A DNA stretch of 64,000 nt from Chloroflexota bacterium (GCA_005880575.1 VBIZ01000104.1:3735-67734), one strand, 5' to 3'; shown: positions 4,313-4,891, counted from the first letter of the stretch. Made by a program: numbers and translations. The notes: generated by a model from the letters alone, not told the origin.

Positions 4313-4891
4313 CTAGGACTTCGCGTCCTTCTTTTGTCGCTCGAGCGCCTTCTCGAGCTCTTCCGGGCTGATCGCTCGCATGATCGCGAGGACCTCGCCC
4401 AGCCGGCGCGGATGGCCGCGGGCTTCGTAGAAACGCTGGCGCTCGAGTGCCTCAGCGAGCTGCTCGTGAGTCAGGATGCCTTCGTCGATCAGGTACTGGC
4501 CCAGGGTCTGAACGGCCGGTGGCTCCCCGAGGATGCCGCGGAGCGTGTTGATCAGGTCGATCGGCCCGAACGGCTTGACGAGGTAATGCGAGGCTCCCGC
4601 GGCGAGACCGGCCTTCCGATCCGCCGAGCTATCGCGCGCGGTCAGCATCACCACGGGAATGGCCTTGGTCGCGGGATCATCCTTGAGCAGCTTGCAGACA
4701 TCGAACCCCGTCGGCCCATCCTCATCGAAGTTCACATCGAGCAGGACTGCCCGCGGCGGGTCGCGGTGGGCGAGGTCGACCGTCTGGTCGGCCGTGGCCG
4801 CCTCGGCAATGGTCCAGCCCTGGGTAGACAGGGTGATCCGGACCATGTCGCGTATGAAGCGTTGGTCGTCCGCTATCAGGATGTCGGTCAC
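4313..4891 (-). CDS. Response regulator: receiver domain fused to a tandem MshEN (T2SSE_N-like) c-di-GMP-binding module
   Basis: REC motifs (DD...D...K), then two 24-residue MshEN repeats: TLGQYLIDEGILTHEQLAEALERQ and RLGEVLAIMRAISPEELEKALERQ. Confidence 0.75.
   Translation of the reverse strand: MTDILIADDQRFIRDMVRITLSTQGWTIAEAATADQTVDLAHRDPPRAVLLDVNFDEDGPTGFDVCKLLKDDPATKAIPVVMLTARDSSADRKAGLAAGASHYLVKPFGPIDLINTLRGILGEPPAVQTLGQYLIDEGILTHEQLAEALERQRFYEARGHPRRLGEVLAIMRAISPEELEKALERQKKDAKS

Follow-up and report, generated by a model that had tools for sequence, protein, structure and literature searches.

What is the product of the gene that lies directly upstream of the 6-phosphofructokinase gene (pfk) in a stretch of DNA from a Chloroflexota bacterium, and which signals does it receive? 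The stretch, referred to below as the window, is 64,000 nucleotides (nt) long (GCA_005880575.1, VBIZ01000104.1:3735-67734), and the gene (Table 1) encodes a response regulator of 192 amino acids (aa). A sequence-only reading had described this protein as a phospho-receiver (REC) fused to a module of the MshEN type, which binds cyclic di-GMP (c-di-GMP). The fusion itself is borne out by our analysis: Pfam recognizes the receiver, and the NCBIfam profile NF053729 and the structural comparison by Foldseek recognize the tail that follows it. We consider it likely that this tail binds c-di-GMP and, on balance, probable that the regulator is an adaptor without an output domain, integrating aspartate phosphorylation and c-di-GMP through protein-protein contacts.

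The predicted open reading frame (ORF) is real. Its G+C content at the three codon positions (0.71/0.42/0.84) fits a coding sequence in a window of 67% GC, the identical 192-aa protein has been called on three metagenome contigs, and there are approximately 60 clusters of full-length homologues. Comparison with 13 orthologues gave ratios of nonsynonymous to synonymous substitution rates (dN/dS) that range over 0-0.23 in the tail and over 0.02-0.33 in the receiver (dS about 0.5-1.8), and both parts are therefore under purifying selection. When one genome is taken per species, a full-length orthologue is found in 19 genomes. For 17 of these the label reads Limnocylindria or unclassified Chloroflexi/Chloroflexota, and one of the remaining ones is a contig binned as Bathyarchaeia. 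A locus 95% identical to that of the window (L019; DASPWX010000152.1) comes from a metagenome-assembled genome (MAG) labelled 'Candidatus Bathyarchaeia archaeon', and one homologue cluster (P0005) carries the label 'Verrucomicrobiae bacterium'. In both cases the contigs probably stem from Limnocylindria and were mis-binned.

The receiver is of the canonical type and, judging from its residues, can be phosphorylated. Pfam PF00072 matches residues 4-117 (E 1.9e-20; 73.5 bits, cutoff 30.2), and receivers among the PDB entries are matched with E-values down to 2e-18. The phospho-acceptor D52 (nt 4736-4738) is accompanied by the acidic pair D8/D9 and by T84, Y103 and K106. In an alignment of 32 sequences (41-95% identity), on which all conservation counts given here are based, D52 and K106 are invariant, while D8, D9, T84 and Y103 are conserved in at least 90% of homologues. 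The AlphaFold2 (AF2) model shows the alternating beta/alpha pattern in this part of the protein, with predicted local distance difference test (pLDDT) values of 82-95.

The tail contains two MshEN motifs, which were scored over 11 specified positions of the strict consensus; a relaxed form admitted R, K, P or N at position 1 and G, A or S at position 10. Motif 1 agrees with the strict form at 10 of 11 positions, the deviation being T129 at position 1, where Arg is expected; this residue (T, S or N within the family) lies outside even the relaxed motif. Motif 2, which opens with R163, agrees at 8 of 11 strict and 10 of 11 relaxed positions. It deviates at A169, R172 and A173, R172 occupying the position of the turn Gly (position 10), which motif 1 keeps as G138. 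Two consecutive 24-residue repeats, both fitting the motif, had been claimed for this region. Both segments are present exactly as quoted, but a 10-residue spacer means that they are not strictly consecutive, and the fit is close for motif 1 and looser for motif 2. In a six-frame translation of the whole 64 kb, the only two segments with at least 8 of the 11 strict positions are these two, both in a single ORF, so the motif pair is far from a chance occurrence.

Profile searches lead to the same place. NF053729 ('cyclic di-GMP-binding domain-containing protein, MshE-related'; 53 positions) matches the regulator with 51.6 bits (cutoff 38, E 6e-14) and the tail alone with 56.1 bits. The match is split into two stretches, one per motif, with motif 1 corresponding to profile positions 2-25. 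The tails of all 18 family members tested against this profile match at E<=0.01 (best 2.3e-15). The Pfam MshEN/T2SSE_N model (PF05157) gave no match to the regulator even at E<=10; of the profiles for this domain, whose failure to match the sequence-only reading had named as a refutation, only NF053729 thus bears the assignment out. Since the protein ends 6 residues past motif 2 (70 residues in total after the receiver), it contains only the MshEN_N subdomain (of the 53-residue type) and lacks MshEN_C. The missing Pfam match follows from this absence and is not counted against the motif. By its sequence the regulator is thus outside the full-length MshEN domain family, having neither a PF05157 match nor the alpha/beta subdomain MshEN_C (T2SSE_N1), and the earlier assignment to MshEN has to be narrowed to MshEN_N. 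A phmmer search of the PDB with the tail alone returned PilF of Thermus (2.6e-8), PilB of Myxococcus and Geobacter, and Vibrio MshE (5HTL). When the 71-aa tail was used as the query for homologues, only 4 fragments were returned. A tail profile searched against 1.8 billion representatives gave 7654 matches; the top small ones are mostly multi-repeat DUF4388/TPR proteins, and a receiver is present in 1 of 65 of these top small matches.

The predicted fold is in agreement with this assignment. In the AF2 model, built on the 32-sequence alignment, the receiver is followed by helices 130-136, 142-157, 164-170 and 176-191, and the same four helices appear when the tail is modelled alone (pLDDT of the tail about 79-85 overall, 79 alone). 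Despite R172, the model retains a turn at residues 171-175. Compared with the PDB by Foldseek, the predicted tail finds MshE or PilF GSPII domains at all of ranks 1-8, 6 of them c-di-GMP-bound structures; for the crystal structures among the eight, the root-mean-square deviations (rmsd) are 0.8-2.1 A. The top match, 5HTL, superposes with an rmsd of 0.8 A over 57 columns (TM 0.71, probability 1.0, 35% identity). As modelled, therefore, the tail is a four-helix bundle superposable on c-di-GMP-bound MshE.

The conserved columns include the places where a ligand would be held. The invariant columns of the tail are L130, G131, L134, A148, L149, Q152, G159, L164, G165, L168, L179 and Q186, and G138, L145, R163 and L183 are conserved at 90% or more. 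Together, these columns cover every position at which crystallized MshE touches c-di-GMP (Wang et al. 2016). The contact residues, at motif positions 2, 3, 17, 21 and 24, are L130, G131, L145, L149 and Q152 in motif 1 and L164, G165, L179, L183 and Q186 in motif 2; of these ten sites eight are invariant, while L145 and L183 reach a conservation of 90% or more. The same degree of conservation is reached by G122, P124, P125, A126 and V127 of the linker between the two domains, in homologues with identities down to 41%.

Table 1. Coordinates of the regulator gene, its parts and other features of the window and of related loci (L numbers designate loci of relatives)
Feature	Position	Strand	Remarks
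REC-MshEN_N response regulator gene	4313..4891	minus	192 codons, GTG start, TAG stop (ORF list)
Receiver (REC) domain	4529..4882	minus	residues 4-121
Pro-rich linker	4508..4528	minus	residues 122-128 (G-E-P-P-A-V-Q); from REC helix alpha5 to first MshEN_N helix
MshEN motif 1	4436..4507	minus	T129-Q152: TLGQYLIDEGILTHEQLAEALERQ; bundle helices 1-2
Inter-motif spacer	4406..4435	minus	10 residues (RFYEARGHPR); contains invariant G159
MshEN motif 2	4334..4405	minus	R163-Q186: RLGEVLAIMRAISPEELEKALERQ; bundle helices 3-4
Intergenic gap, regulator stop to pfk start	4284..4312	minus	29 nt
6-Phosphofructokinase gene (pfk)	3243..4283	minus	346 aa; Pfam PFK E 1e-97
Predicted membrane protein, 162 aa	2752..3240	minus	2 nt past pfk; no Pfam match
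Lysine riboswitch	4987-5172	plus	Rfam RF00168, 89.4 bits, full length
GGDEF protein, 223 aa	39012..39683	minus	Pfam GGDEF E 1e-23; motif intact; no N-terminal sensor domain
80-aa membrane protein of relatives	L001 6579-6821; L003 6582-6824; L004 6588-6827; L013 1779-2024		MDIPLLTLAVTVVVMLVATYGV...
Bactofilin gene	L005 2415-2918; L033 5719-6222		downstream of 65%-identity orthologues
Conserved Limnocylindria paralogue cluster	L095, L096, L097, about 1-6400		
REC-MshEN_N-REC-membrane protein, 609 aa	L035 4944-6773	plus	Limnocylindria; Gly at both turn positions

How the tail should be read depends on how much its deviations matter. In MshE the two motifs jointly bind one c-di-GMP molecule and are separated by a 5-residue spacer in the Vibrio cholerae protein (VcMshE) (Wang et al. 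2016); the pair in the regulator accordingly corresponds to a single site, and not to the tandem module, of supposedly high affinity, of the sequence-only reading. Several observations weigh against c-di-GMP binding. The spacer is twice as long as that of MshE (10 against 5 residues), the turn Gly between helices alpha3 and alpha4 is replaced by R, H, Q or K across the orthologous group (only two distant proteins, P0066 and L035, have Gly there), and upstream of motif 1 there are no basic residues of the kind found in VcMshE (K5/R7/K8). The Foldseek E-values are weak (0.12), which results from the shortness of the domain, and AF2 may have learned the 5HTL fold. Moreover, some substituted MshEN domains have lost binding (Wang et al. 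2016), non-binding variants being documented in XpsE (Wang et al. 2016) and in GSPII-A of PilF. Together with R172, T129, the long spacer and the missing Pfam match, these cases allow a reading in which MshEN_N has degenerated, keeping the four-helix fold but losing the ligand, and the tail serves only as a dimerisation or docking module of an ordinary, phosphorylation-controlled single-domain regulator. We consider this unlikely. The residues altered in the non-binder XpsE (the equivalents of G11, G40, L54, L58 and Q61) are all intact in the regulator and invariant or nearly so, the curated profile NF053729 is matched by all 18 tails, and the fold alone would poorly explain two conserved surface glutamines, Q152 and Q186. 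Proven binders tolerate deviations of this kind. In VcMshE, changes of Arg9 shifted the affinity less than 5-fold, while G11L and G40I abolished binding and mutation of any conserved hydrophobic residue cost more than 10-fold (Wang et al. 2016). GSPII-B of PilF, with K and L at position 1, binds at 6 nM, and GSPII-C, with Pro at position 1, binds at about 0.5 uM. Bdellovibrio bacteriovorus Bd2402, comparably deviant in that its motif 1 opens with F-L-G and its motif 2 has N as residue 10, is reported to bind c-di-GMP with a Kd of 0.4 uM. VcMshE Arg9, GSPII-B and Bd2402 suggest that deviations of the T129 and R172 type may be compatible with binding. Nor is MshEN_C indispensable, as isolated MshEN_N (residues 1-62) binds at 0.35 uM (Wang et al. 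2016).

Another cyclic dinucleotide, e.g. cyclic GMP-AMP (3'3'-cGAMP), might take the place of c-di-GMP, given that Wang et al. (2016) report cGAMP as another ligand of MshEN, and that T129 and R172 might shift the specificity. This appears highly unlikely: neither the window nor the fetched loci of relatives showed a cGAMP synthase, the lineage has GGDEF and HD-GYP genes, and in its motifs the tail has the residues typical of proteins that bind c-di-GMP. The interpretation of the protein as an OmpR/PhoB-type DNA-binding transcription factor derives from automatic annotation, which names it 'DNA-binding response OmpR family regulator' or 'PhoP' (JGI, NCBI), and from PhoB and OmpR being the top NCBIfam receiver matches. 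The receiver matches end at residue 125, and their scores of 50-90 bits (65-88 for PhoB and OmpR) stand far below the cutoffs, which lie at 270-470; no more than 70 residues remain after the receiver, and Pfam recognizes neither Trans_reg_C nor any helix-turn-helix family. In the fold search the earliest DNA-binding protein stands at rank 17 (LexA, probability 0.11). The DNA-binding reading is thus effectively refuted.

Taking into account that neither a DNA-binding nor an enzymatic domain of the regulator is matched in Pfam and NCBIfam, we infer a mode of action in which two signals converge on one adaptor. The host would be an uncultured soil bacterium of the class Limnocylindria and the regulator a cytoplasmic protein devoid of enzymatic or DNA-binding output. 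A histidine kinase encoded elsewhere than nearby would phosphorylate D52, remodelling the alpha4-beta5-alpha5 face of the receiver. In the tail, the two helix-turn-helix motifs may jointly hold a single c-di-GMP in extended form, the way Vibrio MshE and Thermus PilF do. The Hoogsteen edges of the guanines would be read by the backbone amides that follow G131 and G165, the leucine clusters L130/L179/L183 and L164/L145/L149 would each pack on one base, and ribose and phosphate would be bound by Q152 and Q186. The Pro-rich linker is presumably rigid and would tie the four-helix bundle to alpha5; as it is both short and conserved, the alpha4-beta5-alpha5 face and the nucleotide site are probably coupled. 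The combined state of phosphorylation and c-di-GMP occupancy would then set the affinity for a partner protein, for which PFK, the 80-aa membrane protein of relatives and the bactofilin of a more distant clade are candidates.

The neighbourhood of the gene supplies the first of these candidates. The distance of 29 nt to pfk on the same strand, as originally noted, is correct, and no terminator-like or sigma-70-like promoter site was found on the minus strand of this gap; pfk is probably co-transcribed with the regulator gene. On the plus strand, a terminator-like hairpin with a T-run lies antisense to the final codons of the regulator (4315-4329); the hairpin count there is within shuffle expectation, and it is probably a chance occurrence. 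The 162-aa predicted membrane protein, which contains two His-containing motifs (LVEHGAQM... and WHFVEHSVM), is possibly encoded by the last gene of the regulator-pfk unit. Within the clade whose regulators are at least 91% identical this gene adjoins pfk, and in others it lies approximately 1 kb further off. In 7 species-level relatives, the gene for an 80-aa single-pass membrane protein is placed between the regulator gene and pfk, its ATG overlapping the regulator stop (TGATG). It is absent from the window, where it was searched for, and its distribution is patchy, since the clade of the window (at least 91% identity) and some relatives of 76-80% identity do not have it.

The neighbouring gene had been named a pyrophosphate (PPi)-dependent PFK. 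That it encodes a PFK is clear, and the use of PPi is plausible, as its product has N103, D104 and K124 (E. coli numbering); position 103 is Asn and not Asp (GGNDT versus GGDGS or GGDDT). The combination of D104 and K124 is the classical signature of PPi-type enzymes. The PPi dependence is nevertheless not established, because the protein passes the ATP-PFK model NF002872 (352 bits, cutoff 253; 'PFK_mixed' group, NCBIfam), while its scores with the PPi-PFK NCBIfam models are far below their cutoffs.

On its other side, the regulator gene faces a divergent unit. The lysine riboswitch precedes genes for a homocitrate synthase (HCS)-like protein (HMGL-like + HCS_D2) and the large and small subunits of aconitase (5269-8263, plus strand), and thus appears to control a lysine pathway of the alpha-aminoadipate type. 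A sigma-70-like promoter match (4935-4964, plus strand) is located just upstream of the riboswitch, and the intergenic sequence containing it is conserved in relatives when inspected by eye (L001, 5640-6000). Wherever the contig of an orthologous locus of at least 64% identity reaches that far, the riboswitch-HCS-aconitase unit is kept.

Does the regulator then act on glycolysis? It might be a dedicated post-translational regulator of the co-transcribed PFK, an elaboration of the adaptor model in which c-di-GMP and a phosphorelay would be linked to glycolytic flux. Besides the short gap free of minus-strand terminators, this is favoured by pfk following the regulator gene in all 25 loci examined that have at least 72% regulator identity (within Limnocylindria). 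Yet the pfk-bearing loci are syntenic throughout (HCS and aconitase 91-100% identical), so that the adjacency fits inherited gene order and is weak evidence of a functional link, and the 7 relatives mentioned above have another gene in between. Orthologues of 57-65% identity have no pfk within their flanks, which speaks against the linkage as such: the next gene encodes a bactofilin (L005, L033) or a convergently oriented GYD protein (L014), or else a 1.1-kb gap is followed by MgtE (L012). The linkage to pfk described in the sequence-only reading consequently holds for the window and for orthologues of at least 72% identity and is lost in this clade. In L005 and L033, genes for YjbR and another single-domain receiver lie beyond the bactofilin gene on the opposite strand. 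A literature search for REC-MshEN proteins tied to phosphofructokinase found no precedent, and the link to glycolysis comes from gene order in a shallow clade. We therefore regard a dedicated PFK regulator as improbable. Quite improbable, too, is the specific arrangement in which an adaptor responding jointly to Asp phosphorylation and c-di-GMP directly controls PFK, with the participation of the 80-aa membrane protein in relatives and perhaps fed by a hybrid-kinase/HD-GYP phosphorelay; if true, soil Chloroflexota would have their glycolytic flux controlled post-translationally by c-di-GMP.

For the two-input adaptor that we favour, sources of both signals can be looked for in the window and the lineage. 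The gene for a sensor-less GGDEF cyclase, recognized earlier, was found again and has no sensor domain; it is 34 kb from the regulator gene. The approximately 35 C-terminal residues of its product weakly resemble a ribbon-helix-helix domain (RHH_3, 19.7 bits, cutoff 21.6), making a diguanylate cyclase fused to a DNA-binding tail possible on sequence grounds. No RxxD I-site is visible by eye upstream of GGDEF, and a NUDIX hydrolase gene (38399-38989) follows the GGDEF gene. Searches of the window for HD-GYP, a second REC and a second GGDEF domain found none, and no kinase domain is present in the Pfam lists of the 17.8-kb locus or of 10 further ORFs, which are part of the ORFs of the window. 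Among receiver paralogues, the closest (60% identity) is a single-domain REC protein of 123 aa with an almost identical helix alpha1, 'IRxMVRITLSTQGW'. It belongs to a cluster conserved in Limnocylindria, with the order hybrid kinase (REC+HATPase_c), MFS, VTC, REC-HD-GYP, REC-GerE, 123-aa REC and HD-GYP. Both HD-GYP proteins keep the signature HHExxDGxGYP, which indicates that the lineage has c-di-GMP-degrading enzymes, and one such cluster is found in the same MAG (GCA_036003765.1) as a regulator orthologue. This suggests that the REC-MshEN_N protein may have derived from the 123-aa receiver and may share its phosphodonor; the cluster may represent the phosphorelay that feeds the REC-MshEN_N protein. 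In the 609-aa protein of L035, the two MshEN motifs are followed by a second REC and a hydrophobic segment, and the type of the C-terminal region is not recognizable; the partial protein P0066 (327 aa) resembles it.

Limnocylindria are an abundant uncultured class of soil bacteria, and the regulator adds a likely c-di-GMP receptor where none was annotated. As annotation pipelines assign the protein to OmpR/PhoP and Pfam finds the receiver only, the predicted c-di-GMP-sensing tail is invisible in the annotation of this class. Being about the smallest natural REC-MshEN_N unit, the protein is also convenient for studying the coupling of phosphorylation to c-di-GMP.

VcMshE (5HTL) and GSPII-B and GSPII-C of Thermus thermophilus PilF share with the regulator two 24-residue motifs and a four-helix bundle (predicted in the regulator); both motifs of the regulator keep L, G, L, L and Q as contact residues. 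In MshE and PilF, however, the module includes MshEN_C (T2SSE_N1) and forms the N-terminal part of ATPases for secretion or pili, whereas in the regulator a receiver precedes the bundle, MshEN_C is lacking, the spacer has 10 residues and PF05157 does not match.

The Caulobacter Cle proteins (Nesper et al. 2017, PMC5677366) likewise consist of a single receiver with a short C-terminal extension that binds c-di-GMP (binding being predicted in the regulator). They have no output domain and act by binding a partner protein, a mode that we propose for the regulator as well, and the Cle family is, by this analogy, its nearest functional counterpart. The extension of Cle is an arginine-rich peptide and not an MshEN_N bundle, and activation of Cle is independent of the phospho-switch, while the regulator keeps all switch residues. 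The cle genes reside in chemotaxis clusters and their products target FliM; there are no flagellar or chemotaxis genes near the regulator gene.

The association of REC with MshEN was described by Wang et al. (2016), whose Supplementary Table 4 lists REC-MshEN_N-UNK (Bd2402), MshEN-REC (Glov_2262) and (MshEN_N)2-REC-ACyc; Pkinase-MshEN-UNK-REC is reported there too. The motif on its own is likewise covered by a curated model at NCBI. REC and an MshEN-type module share a polypeptide in Glov_2262 of Geobacter lovleyi, in MXAN_7396 of Myxococcus ((MshEN_N)2-REC-cyclase) and in the L035 protein, which differ from the regulator in the order or number of domains and have extra output or membrane domains. 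Closest in architecture is Bd2402. There, too, an N-terminal REC is followed directly by MshEN_N and MshEN_C is missing; motif 1 starts without Arg (F-L-G; T-L-G in the regulator), and the turn of motif 2 has no Gly (N; R in the regulator). In Bd2402, MshEN_N starts near residue 206, the spacer is apparently shorter, and at least 75 residues continue past motif 2 into an uncharacterised domain, while the regulator ends 6 residues past that motif with no third domain. The hosts also differ in phylum, Bdellovibrio (Deltaproteobacteria according to the source) versus Chloroflexota. The REC-MshEN_N combination and its ligand binding were thus already reported in 2016, and the regulator does not constitute a new class of system; it is a minimal REC-MshEN_N protein, of 192 aa with nothing after MshEN_N, in an uncultured class of Chloroflexota.

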